Virus record (IMG/VR): IMGVR_UViG_3300006204_000004
Location: 62,067 to 126,066 of that record
Reading direction: 5' to 3' (one strand)
Origin: a virus
Lineage: Duplodnaviria > Heunggongvirae > Uroviricota > Caudoviricetes
DNA: 64,000 nt
Below the pieces are notes generated by a model. The model saw only the letters and a program-made list of their open reading frames with translations. It was not told the origin of the DNA and ran no database searches. Every line of letters begins with the position of its first letter. The first letter of the stretch is position 1. The position numbers and the translations under genes were made by a program. Positions 16,001-63,253 of the stretch are shown piece after piece.

Positions 16001-17758
16001 CTGCTGGGTGATGAACTGAGTGATGAAGATACAGGCGTATTAACGAAAGATGGACTTGCAGTATTATCCTTATATGTGTCACAGATGAATATCTGTAAGG
16101 ATGCAGCCGAATCCTTCCATAAAGAAATTAACTCCATGCAGGATGCGTTAGACAGCGGGACATTATCCTTTATTGATGCAAACGGTATCCAGCGGGAATA
16201 CGCTTCTGTATTTGAACTAAAGAAAGCAATCAAAGACTTTTACTCTTCTTACCGTGATGAAATCAAACATGTTTACGATTATGAGTCCAAAATTGTAGAC
16301 ATGATGATTAAGAAATACCAGTCTGAATTGGATTATTTGAAAGAGCTGATTGAAAAGAAAAAAGCGGAACTCGATGCCGAAAAAGACCTTCATGACTATG
16401 CTAAATCACTGAAAGAACAGACAGACAATATCAATTCCCTGCGGAAACAGATTGCTGCCTTAAAAGGTGACACATCTAAAGAAACAGAATCCCGTATCCA
16501 GAAATTGCAGTCACAGTTGAAAGAATCTGAATCATCGCTTGAAGAGCAGGAATATGAACGCTATATCTCTGACCAACAGGATATGCTTGACCATTTATAT
16601 GATGAATATGCCAAACTCGTAGACAATGTAATGAAAGACCATGACAAACTCTTAAAAGAAGGCTTGGACTTATTCGCGCAGACAGCTTCAGATGTACAGG
16701 ACGTAATTAAAGCAACAGCAGAAGAACATGGCTATGAAATTACTGCTGAAATGGAAAAGGTCATTGCATCCATTGAAGGCATGGGTCATTTAGACTCCTA
16801 TCTTGGTGTTGGAGGTACTATTACACAGTCCCTTGGCGATATCGTAAACGAGGTTCATAATGCTTATGTTGGCATATCTTCTGAATTCCAGGGGTTAAAA
16901 GATGCAATTGCTTCTATCGGTTACCAGGGGAAATATGATACTTCTGATCCTGATCATTCAGCTTCTTCTGGAAATACAACGGAAAGTACAGGGAATACTT
17001 CTATACCATCAGGAAATACAAGCACGCCAGCAGGTAATGTTACAAATACGGATTTGGACAAACTGCCAGACATGGATGCTGTAGGGGCAGCAACCAAAAT
17101 GGCTATAAATAAGCTGTTACGTAATGGGACAAATACTTATGACCCAAAGACAACATCAAGCTTGAACAAATACATCTATGGGAAATACGGGAGCGCGCTG
17201 ACCGTTGATGAGATGGCAAAGCTATCTGGATATCTTGGATTTAATTATACTTCCAAACAGTTAGCAGCAGAAAACCCTAACCATTCAGAACGTAAGATGA
17301 AAATGCTTAAAAAGCTACAAGCATATGGGTTTGCAAATGGGGGGATTGTTCCAGATGATGCTTTGAAATTAAAAGACCTTGGAATGGGACGTGCTTCAAA
17401 TGGGGATACGGTGATCGGCACATTAAAACCAAAAGAAAGCGTGTTCAATGAAAAACAGACAAAAATGATCCAGGAATATGTGAACAAGGCACCAGATTAT
17501 AAGACTGTGATGGATATTGGGAATTACATGGATAAGTTTGTGAAGATGCCAGCGGTTGAAAAGAAAGATAACCAGGTACAGAATATACTACAGGTTGGAG
17601 ATGTCAGTTTTAATCTGCCGAATGTATATGACTATGCTGATCTCATGAATGAGGCAAAGAACGATCCGAAATTTGAGGAAATGATTGCACGTATTATGAA
17701 ACATCAGCTTGGATTTGGAAGCTATTTGAAAAAGACAAATGTTACTTTCAGGCATTAG
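10091..17758 (+). CDS. Tail tape-measure protein (2555 aa) with embedded NlpC/P60 peptidoglycan hydrolase domain
   Basis: N-terminal hydrophobic segment and long coiled coils. NlpC/P60 at nt ~13290-13620 (WGG...DCSGFVQQVY...HVGIY). Internal ~230-aa duplication. Immediately upstream of the Dit/Tal genes. Confidence 0.6.
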   Translation: MIFKTTTITSWLSGTSNSINDEIIQPFQNAEQVIWKYNQAIQHNSLTQQGWERLLAQSDDGLKSYLTSIKGTSASMIGYTTSLQGNIVGLKKVSSAITQYNSLTITGTSEQNMFAMAVSTTNGKLGSYLTSLNGAKATLGGYTVSLFSATAKTIALKAATLALNTAMTMGISVAISAVIEGIQYLCNANERYIESQKQIIDKTTENIQKYEDEITSLNALQSKLEDAKGDKTELAKIQNELNAAIGNTPELLNTESNAYEVANQKIEDRIERLKELRELELERKITAQKEIFNNSKVSNEWGFDHKFDYFSDHKLKLTSRNNSDEDFFKYIDDDLKNRYVSLQELFNNLIKNNYGDGKKSYAEIWKELIDSYGGAFFDTSEIQTFFDEQSSIAKELLKEYIDNSDSIFSKEELNSIIENLVESGYAQDLEGIRSVITSLVKNDDLKSTIDEYYNSLFDENIDSDKLYQKIKSQFDELSNKYPELQNILNNFFNNIGTDIKNGVENTIENVEKITTISGILEKFGQTEAIDKYKDKISSLQSYLEKLEDGNFSPVDAEALANEFNIVGVTAEECIDKINAKIQSEKNNIIAIIDDIIKQGLADGSIGDAELEKLRSYRDILAEIADVNLDNQLSLKTGNALADVQSLSQGLDQLDKIYADILDKEAFDFSSILNNDSFKEAFSAYTDEYDNFINTVSKSPDDINACQDAFNKLTAAYIKGSGVLSEVTEGTKQQTVNMLKQMGVANAAEIVEQALIENEKMLAAQKYATSQGCKDLEKATYEEINALIAEGETTEEVMKYLAKLAIEKWKANKEELKTQADCDNLLKLADYAGATAGQIRELKNAMADLNTFDFTNPMGSMLGSAVDNFIINAAEKMPGLKKSPFYKNVVKNKKKQDKADKTINDIMEDVEKQLLADLNVPEFKVDYSGGITTKDTLEKLQKEAEKQDKKNEETAEQFDWMDIKLNNLIDTASKLKDKISDLLSFGSKKKQTQKAIEATTKALEAEYKAMKKYAEVAKTLSADAAKETTETVTESISGAVSDAVNGAVSDVSSSVASDVVAEAMKYVGVLDYVWGGTSLTKGADCSGFVQQVYRKLGMEIPRNTTGQYGDSNSISVSKADLQPGDLVFFQGSLGSPGNPRHVGIYAGNGQFIDSPTTGKKVQITSLSGRSDYIGAKRYAGASSAPVNSSVSYDTPSTTTTTYTKVVPGIDSKTLAHYQKLVREGSFDIETITNEKLKNAIKSYQEWYDKMKSCRDKIEELNNTLKELYQTMAEIPIEKRDKNVDTLDTRLDIINSKRDNINAVIVDPKKYASTKKTLKQSKNSVKKGIKTKAQRNATGLSKTEIDTIKSQMKKGQTIPAKILDKITNGAVYEQCKQYNDAVYEHSQYAKSIRTAGDSIKKYNTISDQILDAEKAKTKQYKTAYNTTSKNYGKSLDNVKSKGAQTKKAFGSKKFGLTSADINRINSCIKSGKQIPTDLMVQLQSQSIFDSCVEYNKAVMENELLREKLDETRFDLQKQQQAETAAHLQNKTEKHQNIADKASAKMERNEALAENADTPKKKNKYLSKNLGLLQTEYKHLIKIAELENDSVKAAKLRAELEKETAGIIEQQFQNISGYYSARRDKVSDKESLQDVRYENAQVDVQKKNDILNIKTRFAAERNAESEQEYTDTAKLFNTNRTNAKKAVNKVKKLSSSDKGKILKLMESKEEIPENLMDKVAKLDPDAYQKLLSYNDSLDWLEKAALNKKISNEELIKAKRENEIQKHQNVADRAQDKMDKNDALSEVSTSASEQNKYEKENIKYLNTQYKHLLEIAKLHEDDVEYARLEAEQQAKIAEAYKAMFDNVQTEFENKISLISNDIFDLDNEIKKVEASGRLVDASYYNHKISFENESLAKLKEEEASLAEQLKNVKMFSPAWYECQDAIQGVQNAQADSLSKVKEYKDAINEIADTIQNDIVDAFHDVTDEAELLVTLLGDELSDEDTGVLTKDGLAVLSLYVSQMNICKDAAESFHKEINSMQDALDSGTLSFIDANGIQREYASVFELKKAIKDFYSSYRDEIKHVYDYESKIVDMMIKKYQSELDYLKELIEKKKAELDAEKDLHDYAKSLKEQTDNINSLRKQIAALKGDTSKETESRIQKLQSQLKESESSLEEQEYERYISDQQDMLDHLYDEYAKLVDNVMKDHDKLLKEGLDLFAQTASDVQDVIKATAEEHGYEITAEMEKVIASIEGMGHLDSYLGVGGTITQSLGDIVNEVHNAYVGISSEFQGLKDAIASIGYQGKYDTSDPDHSASSGNTTESTGNTSIPSGNTSTPAGNVTNTDLDKLPDMDAVGAATKMAINKLLRNGTNTYDPKTTSSLNKYIYGKYGSALTVDEMAKLSGYLGFNYTSKQLAAENPNHSERKMKMLKKLQAYGFANGGIVPDDALKLKDLGMGRASNGDTVIGTLKPKESVFNEKQTKMIQEYVNKAPDYKTVMDIGNYMDKFVKMPAVEKKDNQVQNILQVGDVSFNLPNVYDYADLMNEAKNDPKFEEMIARIMKHQLGFGSYLKKTNVTFRH

Positions 17759-17922
17759 AAATAGATAAGTAGATAACTGGGAGGTGTAAAAGCCTCTCTG
17801 GGTATTGGATTAAATCGTAAACGTACTTATAACATAAACATATGTTCAGTATAGTATCCTGTCGATTATTGGTATATAATGTCATTTATAAATTATAATA
17901 CTAATGATTGGCGGGTAAATAA

Positions 17923-18657
17923 ATGGCAAATTATTTTCTGTTTTTAGACGAGTTAAAATCAAATGATAAATACAAACATTTTTGTATAGGCGGATGTTTT
18001 GTTGAAGAATTATATTATAGAGATAAAATTGTAAAACAGGTTAATGCCCTGAAAAATAATATTTTTGGCAATACTTCTATTATTTTACACGAGAATGAAA
18101 TCCGTTCATACAGAGATAAATATAAAATTTTAAAGAAAGACAGTGAAAAAGAGAAAAGATTTTGGGAAATGCTTGGTGAAATATATACAAAAAATGATAT
18201 CTATACATTATGCGCCGGAGTACATTCAGAAAATTTGAAAAAGTATTATCCGAGCAAAACGGAAAAAGATAGTGAATATTATATTGCTCTGCAAATTATT
18301 TTAGAAAATTTTGTACATTTTTTAATAGATGTAAAAGGAACTGGATGTGTATATTTTGAATCCAGGGATATGCAGTCAGATTTTGAGCTATGCAGACATT
18401 ATGATATGATTATTGAAAATGGAACCTTATTTCTTGAACCAGAGTTAATGAAAAAACATTTAAGGTGTATAAGTTTTCCATTAAAAATAGATAATAATAT
18501 TGGACTACAGCTTGCGGATTTTATACCGAATCCAGTTGTAAGGTATTTTCAAAATGATCAACAGAGGGAATTAAATATATTCACACAAATAAAAGAAAAG
18601 TCATATAATGGGAATATAGATAGAAATGATAGGTTTGGATTAAAAAAAGTTTTATAA
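17923..18657 (+). CDS. DUF3800-like protein (moron between TMP and Dit)
   Basis: C-terminal GLQLADFIPNPV is the LQxADf signature I associate with DUF3800. Own promoter-like extended -10 at ~17850. Confidence 0.5.
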   Translation: MANYFLFLDELKSNDKYKHFCIGGCFVEELYYRDKIVKQVNALKNNIFGNTSIILHENEIRSYRDKYKILKKDSEKEKRFWEMLGEIYTKNDIYTLCAGVHSENLKKYYPSKTEKDSEYYIALQIILENFVHFLIDVKGTGCVYFESRDMQSDFELCRHYDMIIENGTLFLEPELMKKHLRCISFPLKIDNNIGLQLADFIPNPVVRYFQNDQQRELNIFTQIKEKSYNGNIDRNDRFGLKKVL

Positions 18658-18862
18658 AAAATACTTGACACTATTATTTCAGTCTGTTAAAATAATCTGC
18701 AAGTGAAGAGTTCGGAATGACTTCGGGTCGCTTGGCTTTTCACAATATTGTTGCTTGAATGATTTCGGTCTCTTGGGCAGCCAATGTGATAAAGGCATAC
18801 TCTTTCCTGTACAGACTTTTGTTTGTGCTAACGAGGCACTTTTATCATCTCTTGTATATTAG

Positions 18863-18892
18863 AGCATCTGCTTAATTGCAGATGCTTTTATA
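18863..18892 (+). terminator. Rho-independent terminator
   Basis: AGCATCTGC-ttaatt-GCAGATGCT followed by TTTAT. Confidence 0.5.
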
Positions 18893-19310
18893 AATAGCGC
18901 AAAGTAGATTAATGCAACGGAATATTGTGCTAAAATACTATGCTCGTATGAGCCGGATATATTTATCCATTAAAAAATCAAAAAGGAAACTTTGATGAAA
19001 AATATAAATTATGAATTACATGGATGCTTAATTAAATCAAATATTTTAGAAGTTAGAATTCCTACAAAAGAAGAAATAATTAAGCAAAGAAAAAAATAAT
19101 ATATTTATAAATTACAGAAAAAGTTCTGATTGTAAAATGAATTCAACAGAAGAGCACAAGTAATTGGTAAGTCTAGCTGTTATATTTGTGACATTTGTAG
19201 AAGAGCATTTAAAGGAAGTAAGCCCAACTACACGATAAGTGAATTTTAGAAGCAGAAAAGATTGGAGTTGTCAGTCTTTTTTGTATTGTATATAAACTAT
19301 ATTTAATCAT

Positions 19311-19380
19311 TTTAAAGTTTTTGAAGTTTTACAGTTTTGTAGTTTTATGTTTTTGAGGTCTTATAGTTTTTAAGTCTTAG
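19311..19380 (+). repeat. Four tandem ~16-17 nt repeats (A.AGTTTTTG.AGTTTT-like), flanked by a promoter-like element and a T-run
   Basis: aaagtttttgaagtttt / acagttttgtagtttt / atgtttttgaggtctt / atagtttttaagtctta. Upstream TTGTCA-17-TATATA at ~19268; downstream weak hairpin plus T7 at ~19385-19412. Confidence 0.4.
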
Positions 19381-19516
19381 GAGAATGAGGATTGGCAGAA
19401 GATATCAGTCCTTTTTTTGTTATACGGTTTATTGATATAATAATTATAAATATAAAAGTAAATTCAACACACAAGGGCAGTCTCCGGGCTGCTCTTTTTC
19501 ATTGCAAAAAAAATAG

Positions 19517-19792
19517 ATGATGGAGGAACCGGTAATGTTTAGTAAGAGTAAAGCTGAGAGAGAACTGCTGTATGGTGAAATTAATAGGCTGAAAAAAATT
19601 AATAAGAAACTGGAAGATGAAAATAGACGATTGAGAAGTTCTATGGGGGATATTGAAAAATACAAGAAAAAATATAAAGAATTGATTAATTCTATTGAAA
19701 TTGTGAAGAAAAAGTATTGTGAAAAATTAGATACTTTTGATGGAATAAGTGTACTTTATAGAAAAGAGTTGGAAAAATTGGCAAGTAAATAA
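19517..19792 (+). CDS. Small coiled-coil protein
   Basis: 91 aa, heptad-rich (LKKINKKLEDENRRLR). Preceded by a terminator-like hairpin at ~19476-19500. Confidence 0.4.
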   Translation: MMEEPVMFSKSKAERELLYGEINRLKKINKKLEDENRRLRSSMGDIEKYKKKYKELINSIEIVKKKYCEKLDTFDGISVLYRKELEKLASK

Positions 19793-19852
19793 TATAAACA
19801 GAAATTTTAATCTAAGATAGTATTATCTTCAATTAGTCTTTGTGAGGCGCAA

Positions 19853-20325
19853 ATGACAAAGGGTAAATTCTATTTCTTATCAGACGAATATTGTGATAAA
19901 TTCTCAAAACACGACGTAATGGCAAATAAGGAAACTTCTTCTGATGGATTCCACAAAAGACCTTGCTTCTACTCTATTCAAGATGTTAAAAACAAGGATA
20001 TATATTGGATGATACCAATATCTTCTCAGATAGAAAAATACATAGAAATTCATAATCAAAAACTGAAACGTTATAAAATATATGACGGTTTAGAGTTTGG
20101 GTACGTTCAAGGCAGAGAAGCTGCATTTCTTTTACAAAATATTTGTCCTGTTACAGAAAATATATTGTTGAGAAATACATAGATGAACGTACTGGAAAGG
20201 ATGTGTCTATTCCTAAAGATTTAATGAGGAAAATAGATACAAAAGCAAAGAAAATAATGAATAAATACTATCAGGGAACAAAAATTGTCATAACTGATTT
20301 GGATTATATTTTTAAAAATTTATAA
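19853..20325 (+). CDS. ToxN/AbiQ-family (type III toxin-like) endoribonuclease, apparent -1 frameshift in an A4 run at 20157-20160
   Basis: N-terminus KGKFYFLSDEYCDKF...HKRP...YWMIPISS parallels the AbiQ/ToxN FY..S..Y...F / KRP / Y.APLSS pattern. Adding one A at 20157-20160 joins the two ORFs into ~158 aa. Confidence 0.5.
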
Positions 20326-20622
20326 ACAAGACGCAAATTTACCCGAGAGAAGTTCTTGAATTGGACAAACAACCTAAAGTTACTTTTATATAAAATTTAA
20401 AAAAGGATAAGGACTAAGGAGTGAATTAATTTTTAAATGAAGAAATAGAATTTTAGAAAACATATCAATAAGTTCATATCTCATAAATAATTTGTCTAGT
20501 AGCAAATATATAGATCATATTAAAGAAATTAATAAATGATAGACAAAATAAATCATTCTAATACCGAAACATATTAAAAAAACAAATATATTTATATTTT
20601 TAAACAGAAATGAGGTGAATAT

Positions 20623-21408
20623 GTGGATGCTACAAATTTTATATTTGATGGAAAAAGTTTAAGCGATTTTGGTTTTATTATATGTGAATTTAATGGGGAA
20701 ACAAATACTTCTACTCCATCAAATATTACATTCATCACCTTAAAAGTCCCTGACAATGATAGAAGAAGATTTTTATCATCTAATTATGAAGATGTAATTT
20801 CATTTGAATTTTCTATTGCTAAATATGAAAGCAAAAAAAATAATCTTTCAATAAATAGTTATGAAGACAGAGCAATAAGAAAGTGGTTATGCCGCGAAGA
20901 TGGTTTTCATGAACTTATAATCGAGCAGGATGATTTTTATAATATATACTATAATGCTCAGATTAATATAACTCCACAAATGGTTTGCGGACGAATACGT
21001 GGGTATAAGCTTACTATTACAACTGATAATGTATATGGTTATACTGAATTGTTAGAAACAGAATTTGATATAAACAGTTCTACTCAATATAATTTCTTAG
21101 CTTTATCTGACAAAGCGGACTACTTCTACCCTATCTGGGAAATTACTCCATTACAAAACGGTGATTTACATTTGAAAATTTTAGAAGATATAAATCAGAC
21201 ATATACTATTCTGAAATCTGTAAAGGCAAATTCTAAAATTACTATTGATTCTGAAAATGGAATTATTGAAGGAATAAGCCCCGATAATTTTAACTGGCAA
21301 CTACCACGGATTGTTCAAGGTTATGATGAAACACTCAATACAATCACTTCTACCCTTCCATGCCATATCAAATTAAAATACAAATTAGCGAGAAAGGTGG
21401 TGTGTTAG
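20623..21408 (+). CDS. Distal tail protein (Dit, siphovirus tail component)
   Basis: 261 aa, sits between the TMP and Tal. N-terminus is typical of Sipho_tail proteins. Confidence 0.6.
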   Translation: MDATNFIFDGKSLSDFGFIICEFNGETNTSTPSNITFITLKVPDNDRRRFLSSNYEDVISFEFSIAKYESKKNNLSINSYEDRAIRKWLCREDGFHELIIEQDDFYNIYYNAQINITPQMVCGRIRGYKLTITTDNVYGYTELLETEFDINSSTQYNFLALSDKADYFYPIWEITPLQNGDLHLKILEDINQTYTILKSVKANSKITIDSENGIIEGISPDNFNWQLPRIVQGYDETLNTITSTLPCHIKLKYKLARKVVC

Positions 21409-26310: not shown

Positions 26311-27483
26311 TTGGGTCTTCAAGATAATGTTCAAAAAGTTACACTTGATTTTAATAATCCAAATATAAAGACTCTACGTTTTCATCAGTATGACAAAGAC
26401 GCACGAAAAATTGTAATTACATTCACTAATCTTGGACAAACTGTTCCTATTGACGCTTCAACTACAGAAGCTAGAATAAAATGGTTAAAGCCAGATGGAT
26501 ATCCCGTATTTAATGACGCTATTATCAATACTGATGGAACAGTTACTGTAATATGTACAGAACAGATGTTAATTGCGGATGGCATCGGTCATGCAGAAAT
26601 CATGCTTCTTGAAAAATCTTCTGAAAAAGTCCTGCATTCTATGCCTGTGAAAGCTGTTATTCAAAAATCTGTCTATTGTCATTGCAAATTGACTTCAACA
26701 GCAGAATTTGATGCATTAGTTCATATTCTTTTAAAAATACGAGAAGCTGAAAGAATTATTGAAAAATTCCCAGAATGGGAAGCTGCTGAAAATGCACGAA
26801 AACAAGCTGAACTTGCAAGAGAACAGGCTGAAAAAGAAAGAGAAAAAAATACTGCTATCGCAATTGCAAATGCTAACACTGCCGCTGACAATGCAAATAA
26901 TGCTGCTATAAAAGCAAACACTGCAACTATTAATGCCAATAATGCTGCTAACAAAGCTAATACCGCTGCTTCAAATGCAAATAATGCTGCCAATAATGCA
27001 AATAATGCTGCAATTAATGCGGATGATGCTGCCAATAATGCAATTCAAGCAACTCAAGATGCAAATAATGCAATAGACAAAATGAATCACAAACTTGCTG
27101 AAGCACAAGGCGTTATAAATGAAGCAAGACAAGCAATTATAGATATCAGCAATACAGAACAAGACATAAAAGATGCAGAAGCAGATCGTGTGAATGCTGA
27201 AAATAAAAGACAACAAGACTTTGATAAAAAAATGAATGACGCAGATCAAAAAATAAATGAAATGAATAAATTAATTGATGATTGTTCAGATGCTTTAGAA
27301 AATGCTACTGATGCTCTCGACAGAGCCGATAAAGCAAACGATACTGCGGATGAAACGATAGAAAAACTTAAAGTTGCTATTGAGTCTATCAAAGATTATA
27401 AAGGGAATCAGACAATCATATCTGTTACTCAGCCAGAGAGTCAAGATATTGATGATATATGGTTTATAGAAACCGAACGATAA
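26311..27483 (+). CDS. BppU-like baseplate/fibre protein with Ala/Asn-rich coiled-coil repeats
   Basis: N-terminus (KTLRFHQYDKDARKIVITF...) resembles the BppU N-terminal domain. TTG start with GGAGG 5 nt upstream. C-terminal motif TQPESQDIDDIWFIE. Confidence 0.55.
   Translation: MGLQDNVQKVTLDFNNPNIKTLRFHQYDKDARKIVITFTNLGQTVPIDASTTEARIKWLKPDGYPVFNDAIINTDGTVTVICTEQMLIADGIGHAEIMLLEKSSEKVLHSMPVKAVIQKSVYCHCKLTSTAEFDALVHILLKIREAERIIEKFPEWEAAENARKQAELAREQAEKEREKNTAIAIANANTAADNANNAAIKANTATINANNAANKANTAASNANNAANNANNAAINADDAANNAIQATQDANNAIDKMNHKLAEAQGVINEARQAIIDISNTEQDIKDAEADRVNAENKRQQDFDKKMNDADQKINEMNKLIDDCSDALENATDALDRADKANDTADETIEKLKVAIESIKDYKGNQTIISVTQPESQDIDDIWFIETER
26845..27060 (+). repeat. In-frame tandem coding repeats (NANNAA(I/N)KANTA... 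units)
   Basis: Repeated AATGC(A/T)AATAATGCTGC units. The antisense Ala-rich ORF 26721..27035 is their mirror image. Confidence 0.5.
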
Positions 27484-43615: not shown

Positions 43616-46600
43616 ATGAAGAAATGCTTTTTAAAGAAAGTGCTTGCAAGTATTTTATCTTCGGCTATGATTGTATCTGCAGTACCGCAGACAAATTTAG
43701 CAACTATATCTGCAGCAAAGAAAAATGTAGGACTTAATACTACTTTTAAAACCTTGAAGGTTGGCAAAAGTTACAAATTGAAATTGAAAAATAATTCTAT
43801 TAATTGGAAAATCCAAAAAGTATCAACTACGAATAAAAGAATTTGTACGGTTTACAAAAAGAAATCTACGTCCGTTTTATTAAAGGGTAAAAATGAAGGA
43901 CGAGCTACAATTAAGATCAAAGTTAAAACCAGCAAAAGAAGGACGTTTAATAAGAAAACATTAAAATGCAGGGTCAAGGTTGTACCAAGAAAGTTTACAC
44001 CTGCCCCAGAACCGCAACCTGATCCAGTTCCAGAACCGATAACTACATATAGTATAACATTCAATACAAATGGTGGAAGTTATATTTCTGGGCAATCAGT
44101 TGAAAGTGGAAAAATAATCATAAAACCGAATGATCCTGTAAGACAAGATTATGTATTTAAAGGATGGTATAGTGATATTAATCTTGAAAATGTATATGAT
44201 TTTTCAAGTGCTGTAACAGGAAATATAACATTATATGCAAAATGGAATAATACATATACAGTAAAATTTCAAACAAATGGTGGAAATACTATTGAAGACC
44301 AGATTATAGAAAATGGTGAAAAAGTCACAAAACCAAACGATCCTACGAGATCAAGATCGATATTTTTAGGGTGGTTTAGTGATGGTCAATTAAAAGAAAA
44401 ATATGATTTTTCAAGTACAGTTACAAAAGATATGACTATTTATGCCAGATGGCAAGTTGAAAATGATTATCAACCTAATTGGGGTTATACGGGTGGGAAT
44501 ACTACAGGAAATAATTCAGGAAATAATAATGCAATGCCAGTTAAATATACAGTGAAATTTGATTCAAATGGCGGAAGTAAAATCGAAGACCAGATTATTG
44601 TAGACGGTAACAATGCTATAAAACCAAAAGATCCAATAAAAGAAGGATATATTTTTGATGGTTGGTATATGGATAGTGAATTTAAAGAAACATTTGATTT
44701 TAAAATGGATATAACAAAAAATGTCACATTATATGCAAAGTGGACGAATAAAATTACATATACAGTGACGTTTGATTCTAACGGAGGCAATAAAATCCAA
44801 GAACAAATTATTGAAGATGGAAATTGTGCCATAATACCTGATAATCCGATAAGAAATGGTTATATTTTTGATGGATGGTATACAGGAAAGGAACAAAATG
44901 AAAAATTTAACTTTGAAAGTATTATATTAGAAAATATAACATTATATGCAAAATGGATAATTGATGACAATATGAAGTTTGATTTGGGAAAAATTGAGAA
45001 TTTAGTAAGTGATGGAACTATTACAATTTCTCAAAAAAATGATACATCTATTAAATTTATGGATGGAGTTTTTTTGAATAAAGAAGTTAATAATACTTCA
45101 GATGCTTTAGATATTTTAGATAAGGTGTCTCCAATCTTGACAGTAGACGATAATAATATTGTTGAAACTATAGGAGATATTGAAACATATTCAGAAAATT
45201 TTGGAAGTGATTTTGAAGAGAATTATTATTTATTTAAGCCTGAGATAGGTGGTATTCCTGTAGAAGGAAGTGATATTATTTTAATTACAGGTGACGACCA
45301 TATTCCTCAAGTATTAATAAATTCTTATAATAATGATATTGAAAAAGTTAATATAATTCCAGATGAAGATGTAACAAATAGTATAGAAGATATTATAAAA
45401 AATAATATTATGTCTAATGTAAAAGAGGGTGTGGAATCTGAGTTGATATCTGCGATATTAGAATCGTTGAGTTATGATAAAAAGTTAGTTATATATGCGA
45501 TAGGTGAGGATAAAAAACCACAACTTGCTTGGAAAGTAATAGTAACCAGCAAAACTAATATAGAAGAGGGCGGAAACGTTATCGATGATATTGATATAGA
45601 ATCTTTATCTGAGAGTATGGTGCCCAATATATGTTTGAGTTATTATATTTGTGCAAATGGTTCTGATGGAGGGTCAATTATTGTACAGTCACCAGTGGGT
45701 CAAGGTATTTGGACACCTACACAGGCAGAAGGAGAAGATATAAAAGGTAATTCTCAAACATTTAATTGTGAAGTTCAAGATAATGAATATCGAATGGTTG
45801 ATAATATTCGTAATATTTCAACATATCGAACATTATATAGATCATATGGGTTTTTAGGACTAGGAAAACAAGAAGCAGTTTTGCCTGGGGAGATTTCAAA
45901 AAAAGGATTATTTGGATGGAACAAAAAAACAGTATCTGCACATACAACAATGGCAAAAGCATATGATTATTATAAAAATAATTTAAACAGAAAATCTTAT
46001 GATGGTAGTGGGGACGATATAAAACTAAGTGTTGAATATGTTCCTGATAGTACAAATGCATTTGGTTGGTTATTTAATGTTTTTTTTAATAGCAATGCAT
46101 GTTGGCATCCATATTATAAACAATTTATGTTTAATAACGCAGGAGGATTTGAAGCTGCATTAGATGTATGTGGACACGAATTTACACATGCTGTTATAAA
46201 TACAATAGTAGGAGGAAAAAGTTTAGAAACAACTTTAACTTATATTGGCGAAACGGGTGCATTAAACGAGTCGTATGCAGATATATTAGGTTGCTTAATC
46301 GAAAGAAAAACAGGACATGATAAATGGCTTATTAGTGAAGACGCTACTGATGGTGCTATACGAGATATGTCAAATCCTTCAGTATATGATCAACCTGATC
46401 ATTATGATAATAAATATACGGGTGATAACAACAGTAAATATGTACATACAAATAGTGGTATTTTTAACTACGCAGCCTATAAAATGATGACAGATAATCG
46501 AACATCAAATATTTCTGATGATAAATGGGCCAAAGTATTTTATAAATCACTTTATCGCTTAACAACAGATGCTGATTTTTTAGAAGCAAGTTTAGCCGTA

Positions 46601-47179
46601 ATTAATTCCGCTAAAACTTTAGGTTTTACATATGATCAATTAGAAGCAATACGTGATGCATATAAAGCAGTAGGAATCATTGAAGATAATACTGTAAGAA
46701 TTGTGCTACGTTGGGGCGAAATACCACAAGATTTAGATGCACATCTTGTTGGGCCTGCAGTTAATGATGGAGAAAAGTTTCATGTGTATTTTTCTAATAA
46801 GCATTATTATAGTGAAAACGAAGATAATATTGCTGACTTAGATTATGATTATACTAATGGAAATGGTATAGAAATTATTTCAATACGTACTTTAACTCCA
46901 GGTGATTATTATTATTATGTACATGATTATAGTAATAAAGGTAGTACAGATTCTATGGAGATGTCAAAGTCTGATGCAATTGTTAAAGTGTATCAAGGTA
47001 CAACAAATGAAATATTAAAAACAACTGATGGAAAAGATGCATCATTTAATATTGATAAGACAAAGAATGCAACTTTATGGACGGTAATGCATATACATAT
47101 AAATGAGAATCACACAATAGATATTAAAAGTGAAAATAACTATGCATATCATTATAATGAAGATACAATTGGACAATAA
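43616..47179 (+). CDS. Secreted M4 (thermolysin-like) zinc metalloprotease with five Listeria-Bacteroides-type repeats
   Basis: Signal peptide. Five repeats of YTVKFDSNGG...GYIFDGWY...NVTLYAKW. HExxH (VCGHEFTHAV) plus GALNESYADI third ligand. Confidence 0.8.
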   Translation: MKKCFLKKVLASILSSAMIVSAVPQTNLATISAAKKNVGLNTTFKTLKVGKSYKLKLKNNSINWKIQKVSTTNKRICTVYKKKSTSVLLKGKNEGRATIKIKVKTSKRRTFNKKTLKCRVKVVPRKFTPAPEPQPDPVPEPITTYSITFNTNGGSYISGQSVESGKIIIKPNDPVRQDYVFKGWYSDINLENVYDFSSAVTGNITLYAKWNNTYTVKFQTNGGNTIEDQIIENGEKVTKPNDPTRSRSIFLGWFSDGQLKEKYDFSSTVTKDMTIYARWQVENDYQPNWGYTGGNTTGNNSGNNNAMPVKYTVKFDSNGGSKIEDQIIVDGNNAIKPKDPIKEGYIFDGWYMDSEFKETFDFKMDITKNVTLYAKWTNKITYTVTFDSNGGNKIQEQIIEDGNCAIIPDNPIRNGYIFDGWYTGKEQNEKFNFESIILENITLYAKWIIDDNMKFDLGKIENLVSDGTITISQKNDTSIKFMDGVFLNKEVNNTSDALDILDKVSPILTVDDNNIVETIGDIETYSENFGSDFEENYYLFKPEIGGIPVEGSDIILITGDDHIPQVLINSYNNDIEKVNIIPDEDVTNSIEDIIKNNIMSNVKEGVESELISAILESLSYDKKLVIYAIGEDKKPQLAWKVIVTSKTNIEEGGNVIDDIDIESLSESMVPNICLSYYICANGSDGGSIIVQSPVGQGIWTPTQAEGEDIKGNSQTFNCEVQDNEYRMVDNIRNISTYRTLYRSYGFLGLGKQEAVLPGEISKKGLFGWNKKTVSAHTTMAKAYDYYKNNLNRKSYDGSGDDIKLSVEYVPDSTNAFGWLFNVFFNSNACWHPYYKQFMFNNAGGFEAALDVCGHEFTHAVINTIVGGKSLETTLTYIGETGALNESYADILGCLIERKTGHDKWLISEDATDGAIRDMSNPSVYDQPDHYDNKYTGDNNSKYVHTNSGIFNYAAYKMMTDNRTSNISDDKWAKVFYKSLYRLTTDADFLEASLAVINSAKTLGFTYDQLEAIRDAYKAVGIIEDNTVRIVLRWGEIPQDLDAHLVGPAVNDGEKFHVYFSNKHYYSENEDNIADLDYDYTNGNGIEIISIRTLTPGDYYYYVHDYSNKGSTDSMEMSKSDAIVKVYQGTTNEILKTTDGKDASFNIDKTKNATLWTVMHIHINENHTIDIKSENNYAYHYNEDTIGQ

Positions 47180-61249: not shown

Positions 61250-63253
61250 TTATGATATCAATTTAATAAAATCTTCTTCTGAAATAATAGGTACATTTAA
61301 TTGTTTTGCTTTTGTATTTTTCCCAGACGTGCTTGTAATATTATTGTTTATTAGGTATGAGGTCTTTGATGATACTGATCCTGATACTTTTCCACCAAAC
61401 TGTTCAATAACACTTACTAGATCATTGCGACTTTTATAGTGATTAAGTGATCCTGTAATAACAAATACTTTGTTCGATAGAATCAAATTGTCAGTTATAT
61501 TATATGGTTCTTTTATATCGGATTCTATATTAAACTCTTTTGAAAGTTTTATTATTTCTTTTTTCTTTTGTGTGATATAATCATTCAATGATTTACACAT
61601 TACTTCTCCAAACCCATCCAGATCATTAGCATTAAACTTCCCATAGTTATAAAATACATAAATGTCGTCTAATAAATCTCTAATAGCGATTTTCTTACAA
61701 AATGATGATACTGTTTTGCTTGCAGTTCGTCCAATCAAAGGAATACATAATCCATATATGAATCTATCCAATGTAGTATTTCTACTTTTTTCAATGCTCT
61801 CTAGCAGCTTATCTACAGATTTCTTACCAAAACCATCAAGTTTATACATTTCTTCCATATGTTCTGACAGGCAGTAAATATCTATAAATGAATTTAACCA
61901 TCCTAAATCAATAAATTTTTGTAGTGTCTGTTCAGATAATCCATCTATATTGATTGCATTTTTACTTACAAAATGTGAGAGTTTACCAAGTAACTTACCT
62001 TTACAATCTGGATTAGTACATATTAGAATTTCTGTATCGCTGTCTTTAACCCTTTGTGTATTCCACCCACAAACAGGGCAAACACTTGGAATGTAAATAG
62101 ATTCTTTTGCTGATATACAATCCATTTTTTCTGCATACTCTATCTGGGGGATAATCATATTTGCCTTATAAACACCAATTTCTTGATACTTTGACACAAT
62201 TCCAAGACTTTTCATAATTGAAATATTATGAAGTGAAGCTTTCTCAACTATTGTTCCATCAATCTCTACCGGCTCAAATACGGCTGTTGGCGTTAAAACT
62301 CCTGTCTTACCCATTGTAAATTCAACATCCAACAACTTTGTAGGATAAACATCATCATAGAACTTATATGCCAGAGAGTGTTTTGGATGGTGTCCTGTTA
62401 CTCCTAATGATTCTCCATAGAGAATATCATTATATACAATAACTAATCCATCTATTGGAAATCTTTTTTCTTTCGCAATATACTTTAGTGAATCAATATA
62501 CTCTTCATAATGATTTTTCCACCCCTTTATTAATACACATGGAACAATTTCAAATCCTAATTTTTCTATACGAGAAAGTCTATATGACATTGTTACCACA
62601 TCATAAACATCTTCAATTCCAGGAACTTTCCATGCAATGAATTTAATATATCTTTGTGATGCTACTCCACTATCTAATTGCCTAACTGATCCGCTTACAA
62701 GATTCCGTGGATTCTTATACTTTTCCTTCTCAGGAAGTTTGCTGTTAATCTTTTCAAAGTCATCATATGTAATGATAGCCTCGCCTTCAACTTCCAAATG
62801 TCCCGTGTAATCTATATGCAACGGAATATTTTCAAATACTCTTGCATTATGAGTTATGATTTCTCCCTCTTCACCATTTCCACGAGTCTCTGCCTGAATT
62901 AACTCGCCATTCTCATAAGTAAGCAGTACAGTTAAACCGTCCATCTTGCACATAAGTAAACAATCTCTATCACCAGCAAATTTCTTTAAATCGTCTACCG
63001 ACTTCGTTTTATCGAGTGATAACATAGGATGCGAATGTTTCACCTTTTCAAGATTTGACTTGACTTCATATCCAACTGTATGTGTTGGCGAATTGCTCAT
63101 TACAACTTTTGTTTCTTTCTCTAACTTTTTTAGTTCATCAAATAAGTTGTCATATTCTTGATCTAATATTTCTGATACAGAATTGTTGTAATATGAATCT
63201 CTATATTGATTAAGCTGCTGTGTCAATTTCTTTATTCTTTGTACTTTATCCAA
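61250..63253 (-). CDS. ligA: NAD-dependent DNA ligase
   Basis: KxDG adenylation motif (CKMDGLTV). Cys4 zinc finger CPVCG...CTNPDC. C-terminal BRCT. Confidence 0.9.
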   Translation of the reverse strand: MDKVQRIKKLTQQLNQYRDSYYNNSVSEILDQEYDNLFDELKKLEKETKVVMSNSPTHTVGYEVKSNLEKVKHSHPMLSLDKTKSVDDLKKFAGDRDCLLMCKMDGLTVLLTYENGELIQAETRGNGEEGEIITHNARVFENIPLHIDYTGHLEVEGEAIITYDDFEKINSKLPEKEKYKNPRNLVSGSVRQLDSGVASQRYIKFIAWKVPGIEDVYDVVTMSYRLSRIEKLGFEIVPCVLIKGWKNHYEEYIDSLKYIAKEKRFPIDGLVIVYNDILYGESLGVTGHHPKHSLAYKFYDDVYPTKLLDVEFTMGKTGVLTPTAVFEPVEIDGTIVEKASLHNISIMKSLGIVSKYQEIGVYKANMIIPQIEYAEKMDCISAKESIYIPSVCPVCGWNTQRVKDSDTEILICTNPDCKGKLLGKLSHFVSKNAINIDGLSEQTLQKFIDLGWLNSFIDIYCLSEHMEEMYKLDGFGKKSVDKLLESIEKSRNTTLDRFIYGLCIPLIGRTASKTVSSFCKKIAIRDLLDDIYVFYNYGKFNANDLDGFGEVMCKSLNDYITQKKKEIIKLSKEFNIESDIKEPYNITDNLILSNKVFVITGSLNHYKSRNDLVSVIEQFGGKVSGSVSSKTSYLINNNITSTSGKNTKAKQLNVPIISEEDFIKLIS

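Follow-up and report, generated by a model that had tools for sequence, protein, structure and literature searches.

The locus

The window considered here is a stretch of 64,000 nucleotides from a tailed phage of a gut bacterium (Caudoviricetes; positions 62,067 to 126,066 of IMG/VR virus record IMGVR_UViG_3300006204_000004), and the subject of this report is a 2.8-kb block of its tail module, bounded by the tape-measure gene, which encodes 2555 aa and stops at 17758, and by Dit (20623-21408), which matches PHROG 33 and the N- and C-terminal domains of DUF6558. Four open reading frames (ORFs) of at least 60 aa lie on the + strand between these two genes, namely a DUF3800 gene, a gene for a coiled-coil protein and two fragments of a cptN toxin gene; none of the four matches a reverse transcriptase, and approximately 860 nt without a long ORF separate the DUF3800 ORF from the 91-aa coiled-coil ORF. 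A first-pass annotation, made from the sequence alone, had rightly recognized a cargo (moron) block at this place and had overlooked a structured RNA within it (18698-18891). The block is best explained, with high confidence, by the presence of a dead CptIN toxin-antitoxin (TA) relic (19814-20325) and a live cassette consisting of the DUF3800 gene and the RNA (17850-18891).

A decayed CptIN locus

The last gene of the block had been read as a single 158-aa toxin of the ToxN/AbiQ family; no such ORF exists. The 473 nt at 19853-20325 are split between a 109-aa ORF (19853-20182) and a 60-aa ORF in the -1 frame (20143-20325), and the addition of one A to an A4 run at 20157-20160 yields a 157-aa protein, a full-length CptN (the restored frame requires A5, read as GAA AAA TAT). 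The pseudogene, on the + strand, thus comprises a 5' part (19853-20182; frame 0, 109 codons), which closes with the out-of-frame tail NILLRNT and a stop codon, and a 3' part (20158-20325; -1 frame, 55 codons), which encodes the equivalent of Tyr104 and the C-terminal helices. The repaired protein matches NCBIfam NF047359 (CptIN family toxin) at 166 bits (cut-off 90, E 4.6e-49) over profile positions 1-150 of 150, and aligns with Eubacterium rectale CptN (PDB 4RMO) at E 2e-14 over 4RMO residues 3-151. The PF13958 model of ToxN/AbiQ, by comparison, gives 19.7 bits on the fragment against a cut-off of 25 and no hit on the repaired protein. The suspicion that the gene had been miscalled was therefore partly right, the family being CptN; its reading as a type III-class toxin relative was correct.

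In the alignment with 4RMO, which crosses the repaired junction unbroken (ICPVTEKYIVEKY versus MFPISDKYIEREY), an IVEKY segment stands opposite IEREY of 4RMO, the last residue of which is Tyr104 as counted from the alignment numbering; its equivalent is Y109 of the repaired protein and is out of frame in the window. Tyr104 is a catalytic and specificity residue of CptN, and the active site of the E. rectale protein is formed by Asp81, Ser85, and Tyr104 (PMC4627078). As the frame is lost beyond residue 102, before the catalytic tyrosine is reached, and runs on for seven missense residues, the 109-aa product lacks that tyrosine, and the window holds no uninterrupted toxin frame with a complete active site.

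That the shift falls in a run of A, where sequencing errors typically arise, with 55 codons still open downstream, would suit a homopolymer sequencing or assembly error, in which case an intact toxin would be neutralized in trans by a cptI array of the host. This reading is very improbable. A4 recurs in five assemblies (99.4-99.55% identical to the window) from different studies and at least four sequencing runs, which depart from the window at a further 13-18 positions and in each of which gene callers report 109 aa; because five independent assemblies share it, the frameshift is not a sequencing error. The cognate promoter and array are, moreover, deleted in cis (see below), and conserved positions have undergone nonsynonymous change: G21D, seen in the window, and P55Q, seen within the IPISS motif of its relatives, both alter residues that are invariant in intact homologues. 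The cptN gene thus appears to be under relaxed constraint, unlike the DUF3800 gene, whose substitutions relative to the 99.5% relatives are all synonymous (3/3). A search of 5.8 billion proteins returned no intact relative of this lineage above 87% identity; in the same collection, the 109-aa frameshift product forms a protein cluster of its own. Programmed -1 frameshifting at the A4 run was rejected upon inspection of the sequence, in which no zero-frame heptamer of the X XXY YYZ type occurs, as was transcriptional slippage, for which four A's are too few.

The antitoxin is missing altogether, and its former place can be recognized by comparison with ten related loci from genomes of Lachnospiraceae and other Clostridia, whose cptN is 36-87% identical. 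Directly upstream of cptN, eight of the ten carry a 47-nt repeat in 2.2 copies (Tandem Repeats Finder (TRF) score 134-167), which fits the 40-48 nt and 1.9-3.4 copies described for cptI (PMC3401426), and the closest intact relatives (82-87% identity) mostly show the canonical layout. In that layout, a TTGACA...TATAAT promoter and a variable leader hairpin precede TAGTCTTTTGACTC, after which come the two cptI repeats, a terminator rich in GC, and TATTGTGAGGTACAAATG; across the stretch in question, intact loci read TAGTCTTTTG, 135 nt holding the two cptI repeats and the terminator, and TGAGGTACAAATG. What is left in the window is a leader remnant on the + strand (19814-19842), composed of the hairpin AAGATA-GTAT-TATCTT and then TAGTCTTTG, which reaches the deletion junction and is joined there to TGAGGCGCAAATG; a related locus (L001) has 135 nt between the same flanks. 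About 135 nt of the missing sequence (two ~47-nt cptI repeats and the terminator) was lost at a TTG microhomology. Relative to a syntenic phage (CANDMV010000046.1, hereafter L004), in which an intact cptIN with its cptI array sits between the same coiled-coil gene and Dit, ~220 nt are missing, which account for the promoter region, the two repeats, and the terminator. The terminator GAGGACTCTTCGGAGTCCTC and T-run of the homologues are absent from the window, a cptI profile (nhmmer) finds nothing in all 64 kb of it (best E 0.31), and TRF detects no tandem array in the 300 nt that precede the toxin gene, so that the earlier remark, made by eye, that no canonical array precedes the toxin is confirmed by tandem-repeat software.

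The sequence thus marks the cptIN locus as a decayed TA relic that is structurally dead. With the toxin truncated ahead of its catalytic tyrosine, the relic needs no antitoxin. Among the options offered by the first-pass annotation, an orphaned toxin came closest, although what remains is a frameshifted pseudogene whose promoter, repeats, and terminator have been deleted. Two of the related loci are damaged in other ways: one (L011, 3988-4372) keeps both cptI repeats and has an internal ~100-nt deletion in cptN, and another (L007, 3800-4429) has only one cptI repeat and encodes a toxin cut short at 143 aa. Judging by these arrangements, both are cases of independent decay of cptIN in other lineages. 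Downstream of the cptN remnant in the window, a 270-nt spacer (20326-20595; 22% GC) without ORF or repeat extends toward Dit; it is absent from L004, where 67 nt separate cptN from Dit.

A DUF3800 gene and its structured RNA

The DUF3800 gene (17923-18657, + strand) is intact and encodes 244 aa that match PF12686 at 46.5 bits (cut-off 21, E 8e-12), as the first reading of this gene had proposed. Homologues number 288, and an alignment of 40 sequences reveals seven invariant residues (D9, E10, E57, E128, E146, Q196, and D199), among which are the N-terminal DE (D9, E10) and the C-terminal QxxD (Q196, D199) of the family; a search of IMG/VR with the protein found no relatives. An RNase H2-like fold is predicted from the AlphaFold2 model (predicted local distance difference test score, pLDDT, 94.4), for which the top Foldseek matches in the PDB are RNase HII, RNase HIII, and RNase H2A; the best of these, RNase HII 1eke, has E 3e-3 and probability 1.0, but a template-modeling (TM) score of only 0.44-0.47. 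Such a fold is in line with the RNase H-like fold of DUF3800 (PMC7736814; PMC10910872). In one homologous locus (L030), a group I intron-like match to RF00028 (137-510; 44.4 bits against a gathering score of 50, E 5e-8) immediately precedes a DUF3800 gene that shares 79% identity with that of the window.

Right after the gene lies a promoter on the + strand (18665-18693; TTGACA-17-TAAAAT, with a TG upstream), which agrees with the consensus at 11/12 positions and is the joint-best promoter match of the region. A TTGAC-N15-19-TAnnnT sequence follows the gene immediately in 31 of 34 homologous loci, versus 4.4% of background windows. The promoter is followed by a structured small RNA of ~190 nt (18698-18891, + strand) that comprises two hairpin modules and, 3' of them, a long stem domain, and ends in an intrinsic terminator (~18862-18888). 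In each module, an outer stem leads through an internal loop (GAAUG / CGCUUG) to an inner hairpin that covaries, and the two GAATG motifs, at 18715 and 18757, place the modules 42 nt apart.

Several lines of evidence indicate that this structure is conserved. The RNA folds with a minimum free energy of -66.9 kcal/mol (z = -5.66 versus shuffles), and RNAalifold, applied to a MAFFT alignment of ten sequences, predicts 57 pairs, of which 29 show compensatory changes; MAFFT misaligned four divergent members when given all 14 RNAs, and that alignment was replaced by the ten-sequence alignment and one based on a covariance model. Searched with the model, which was built from the ten sequences, the window yields a single match (18698-18891, 176 bits) and each of 14 distinct loci likewise a single one, immediately 3' of DUF3800; cptN loci yield none. 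In the 14-sequence alignment, which was fitted to the model, so that its covariation counts lean towards structure, 92.4% of cells are paired (75% in shuffles, 38-45% in slid controls) and 39/57 pairs are changed on both sides (22 in shuffles, 10-20 in slid controls); the independent MAFFT/RNAalifold result agrees with these counts. Conserved G-U pairs fix the strand as +. The same arrangement, with a recognizably homologous RNA, is found in loci whose DUF3800 proteins are 51-84% identical to that of the window; gene and RNA are intact, conserved, and co-inherited.

The 42-nt spacing of the modules, which falls within the 40-48 nt range of cptI, and the possession of a promoter and terminator, as in an antitoxin locus, might suggest that the RNA is a displaced and diverged CptI that was parted from cptN by later insertions. 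This is extremely unlikely, as the RNA lies directly 3' of DUF3800 in 13 other loci with no CptN-like gene called nearby, is found in 0/9 cptN loci searched, and bears no similarity to the cptI profile; the true place of cptI, furthermore, is marked by the leader remnant and junction at 19814-19842.

Rfam 15, which includes DUF3800-I and DUF3800-IX, holds no family for the RNA at E <= 10 (881-nt search), at E <= 1, or at the gathering threshold, and neither the region, nor the window as a whole, nor the homologous loci gave a match to a relevant family. A pattern search of IMG/VR for the 3' domain gave five matches, all of which were set aside as chance occurrences in AT-rich DNA. More distant DUF3800 members (L034-L061 and L068; 35-44% identity) carry different RNAs within the ~300 nt 3' of the gene, which by eye show a promoter right after the gene, two or three hairpins, and AAUGC-N-UAGCUA or AUUACGAUAGUUA-type loops; none of them matches Rfam, and they may be further unrecorded DUF3800-linked motifs that share the module plan of the window RNA. 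In one of these loci (L046, 3176-3295), a Clostridiales-1 RNA (RF01699, 81.6 bits) lies ~450 nt downstream of the DUF3800 gene.

The 16-nt repeat and the coiled-coil gene

Two further elements between the RNA and the toxin remnant had been put forward as non-canonical partners of the toxin. The tandem repeats are real, with a period of 16 nt rather than the ~17 nt first given: TRF reports 4.3 copies with 73% matches at 19310-19379 (score 70), and within them an 8-nt sub-period, TTTTNNAG, recurs ~9 times. In 300 dinucleotide shuffles of the surrounding 625 nt (18892-19516), the score never exceeded 56. The repeat is T-rich, has been found only in the 99.5% relatives, where it differs by one indel and one substitution, and, taken as RNA, folds no better than shuffles (z = -0.19). 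The strongest tandem repeats of the window are coding ones, namely a 21-nt unit in 7.3 copies (26890-27043, in the ORF 26311-27483) and a 213-nt unit in 2 copies (44541-44957, in the 1187-aa ORF 43616-47179).

The TTGTCA-17-TATATA sequence that had been assigned to the repeat as a promoter found no support in a scan of the region, which contains 17 promoter-like sites where 19.5 are expected by chance; its TTGTCA lies within a terminator-like hairpin on the + strand (19252-19284; 14 pairs, 3 of them G-C), after which comes a T-run. Within 19310-19420, the repeat gives way to a hairpin, GGAUUGGC...GUCAGUCC, and then to a run of seven U; if used, the promoter-like site, repeat, and hairpin could define a U-rich, unstructured transcript of ~110 nt. 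A candidate 34-aa ORF farther upstream (18995-19099, + strand) is called as a gene in five related assemblies and has neither a PHROG hit nor a family match.

An intrinsic terminator (19473-19496, + strand) followed by the 91-aa coiled-coil gene (19517-19792, + strand) had been correctly described, and both are conserved in L004, where the counterpart of the gene is a 93-aa ORF at the same place (80% nucleotide identity to L004 3398-3644). The product gives only weak matches to coiled-coil families, and a search of IMG/VR with it found no relatives. The gene stands beside an intact cptI in L004 and has no counterpart at the other cptIN loci; it therefore belongs to the phage backbone and is no antitoxin.

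A functional toxin neutralized by either of these elements would account for the lack of an adjacent canonical array, and it might be argued that the 16-nt repeat is statistically real and that the coiled-coil gene lies directly upstream of the toxin. It is nonetheless very unlikely. The toxin ORF is frameshifted in six independent sequences, including the window, with loss of the Tyr104 equivalent; the coiled-coil gene coexists with the intact cptI array in L004 and so has not replaced the antitoxin; and the repeat was rejected as an antitoxin because it is unstructured, unrelated to cptI, and built of a unit far below the 40-48 nt of cptI (PMC3401426).

A cargo slot in the tail module

There is strong reason to regard the phage as a temperate one of Lachnospiraceae type and the 2.8-kb block as a cargo slot of its tail module, with one live and one dead cassette. 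The variable slot extends from just past the tape-measure stop (homology with L004 stops at 17811) to the conserved terminator at ~19468, which forms its right-hand edge. In L004, the order is tape-measure end, small cargo ORFs, terminator, coiled-coil gene, intact cptIN, and Dit (84% nucleotide identity), and the slot is occupied by four unrelated small ORFs. A blastn search of GenBank phages with 17700-20700 gave no match.

The DUF3800-RNA cassette (~17850-18891) is shared at 74% identity with another locus (L020), where it lies upstream of the tape-measure gene; in three loci (L072, L074, and L076) it is found just after a PhageMin_Tail tape-measure gene, and in a fourth (L075) between endolysin and Xis/Int genes. 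Intact cptIN cassettes adjoin integrases in IMG/VR contigs. As cargo recurs at the flanks of the tape-measure gene across phages, insertions there are not exceptional in this phage group, contrary to the initial expectation that such insertions are rarely tolerated between the tape-measure and Dit genes. Just upstream of the cassette and a 2111-aa tape-measure gene in L020 lies an ORF of >1055 aa (1-2113) that matches PF05183, the RdRP family, which includes the YonO-type phage RNA polymerase.

Proposed history and function

With regard to the relic, a canonical type III locus has lost its promoter, cptI repeats, and terminator, and its toxin gene has lost one nucleotide in the A-run. A deletion that took the promoter and antitoxin together would also silence the toxin, and the frameshift might either have preceded the deletion or have been fixed after it. 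With regard to the cassette, the repeated GAAUG hairpin modules of the RNA may, by analogy with type III systems, serve as docking sites for DUF3800 protomers; the RNA would then restrain or direct the DUF3800 nuclease, and the lysogen would gain a defense or addiction function. In its most specific form, this idea holds that DUF3800 of this subfamily and its 3' multi-hairpin RNA constitute a previously unrecognized class of protein-RNA TA or abortive-infection module, in which each repeated hairpin of the GAAUG type would bind a single protomer of an RNase H2-like nuclease and the whole would travel as a prophage-borne, mobile anti-phage cassette. The proposal, which is drawn by analogy, is tentative.

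An alternative of similar weight is that the RNA is not an inhibitor, and either serves a ribonucleoprotein nuclease as cofactor, guide, or substrate or is an independent regulatory small RNA that simply travels with the gene. DUF3800 proteins have been linked to systems guided or templated by RNA (Cas12a2/a3 loci and retron type VII), and several DUF3800 motifs have been judged complex enough for 'sophisticated' functions (Weinberg et al., PMC5737381). A guide role is disfavored in that neither target complementarity nor a variable, guide-like segment is seen, the variable parts being covarying stems. The inhibitor (TA-like) and cofactor/guide roles are thus each regarded as possible, and neither as probable.

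Several points weigh against the combination of a dead relic and a live, type III-like cassette. The 109-aa fragment retains the IPISS motif and could be expressed from a weak promoter or by read-through from the coiled-coil gene. The gene order of the DUF3800 cassette, with the protein first and the RNA under its own promoter, is the reverse of that of type III systems, and no PADLOC model matches the DUF3800 protein. The lean of the 14-sequence covariation counts, mentioned above, belongs here as well.

Significance

The question of a type III toxin without an antitoxin receives an ordinary answer, namely a pseudogenized member of a known family. The cptIN relic nevertheless offers a clean natural case of locus death, in which loss of the array and promoter is combined with a toxin frameshift and fixed across several samples. 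In Lachnospiraceae, cptIN cassettes are phage cargo, both beside integrases and within a tail module. The DUF3800 cassette, in turn, adds a well-supported structured RNA outside Rfam to a DUF3800-linked set whose function has been open since 2017; the TA-like reading, if true, would give a function to these long-unexplained motifs. Because the architecture is regular (its own promoter after the gene in 31/34 loci, with two or three hairpin modules and a terminator where sequences were inspected), a simple toxicity-and-rescue or phage-defense experiment can be designed.

Comparison with known systems

The toxin remnant is most usefully compared with CptIN (Blower et al., 2012, PMC3401426; E. 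rectale CptIN, 4RMO, Rao et al., 2015, PMC4627078). The repaired 157-aa product corresponds to full-length CptN; its closest relatives mostly keep the promoter, ~2.2 copies of the 47-nt repeat, the terminator, and the toxin, whereas the window lacks the promoter region, repeats, and terminator, and its toxin is frameshifted. Truncated cptN genes have been described with their repeat arrays kept, whereas in the window the array is gone too, and the 2012 survey listed 33 chromosomal CptIN loci and none on phages, and so contained no case like the present one, set between the tape-measure and Dit genes of a tail module (PMC3401426). ToxIN/AbiQ (PF13958) belongs to the same class, that of endoribonuclease toxins with RNA antitoxins, and shares the (I/V)P(I/L)SS-type active-site motif; the window toxin nonetheless falls below the PF13958 cut-off and matches the AbiQ model of PADLOC at E 0.0067 only.

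The DUF3800 cassette resembles retron type VII, of which DUF3800 is the effector (Mestre et al., 2020, PMC7736814), in that a DUF3800/RNase H2-like protein is likewise combined with a structured non-coding nucleic acid in a defense-type locus. It differs in that the block lacks a reverse transcriptase and gives no PADLOC hit, and in that the window DUF3800 keeps the QxxD motif, the conserved Q of which is absent from retron-linked proteins.

The RNA itself resembles the DUF3800-I to -XI motifs (Weinberg et al., 2017, PMC5737381; Rfam RF02969, RF02968, and others), an association of DUF3800 genes with structured RNAs for which those authors gave no functional hypothesis. As in the window, a structured, covarying RNA with a Rho-independent terminator lies beside a DUF3800 gene. 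Relative to these motifs, the published forms of which were compared only as Rfam models, the window RNA has two GAAUG/CGCUUG modules and a third domain, and, unlike them, it is always directly 3' of DUF3800, on the same strand, and under its own sigma-70-type promoter. On its sequence features and by comparison with the Rfam 15 models, the RNA is a well-supported and distinct addition to the known class of DUF3800-associated structured RNAs.

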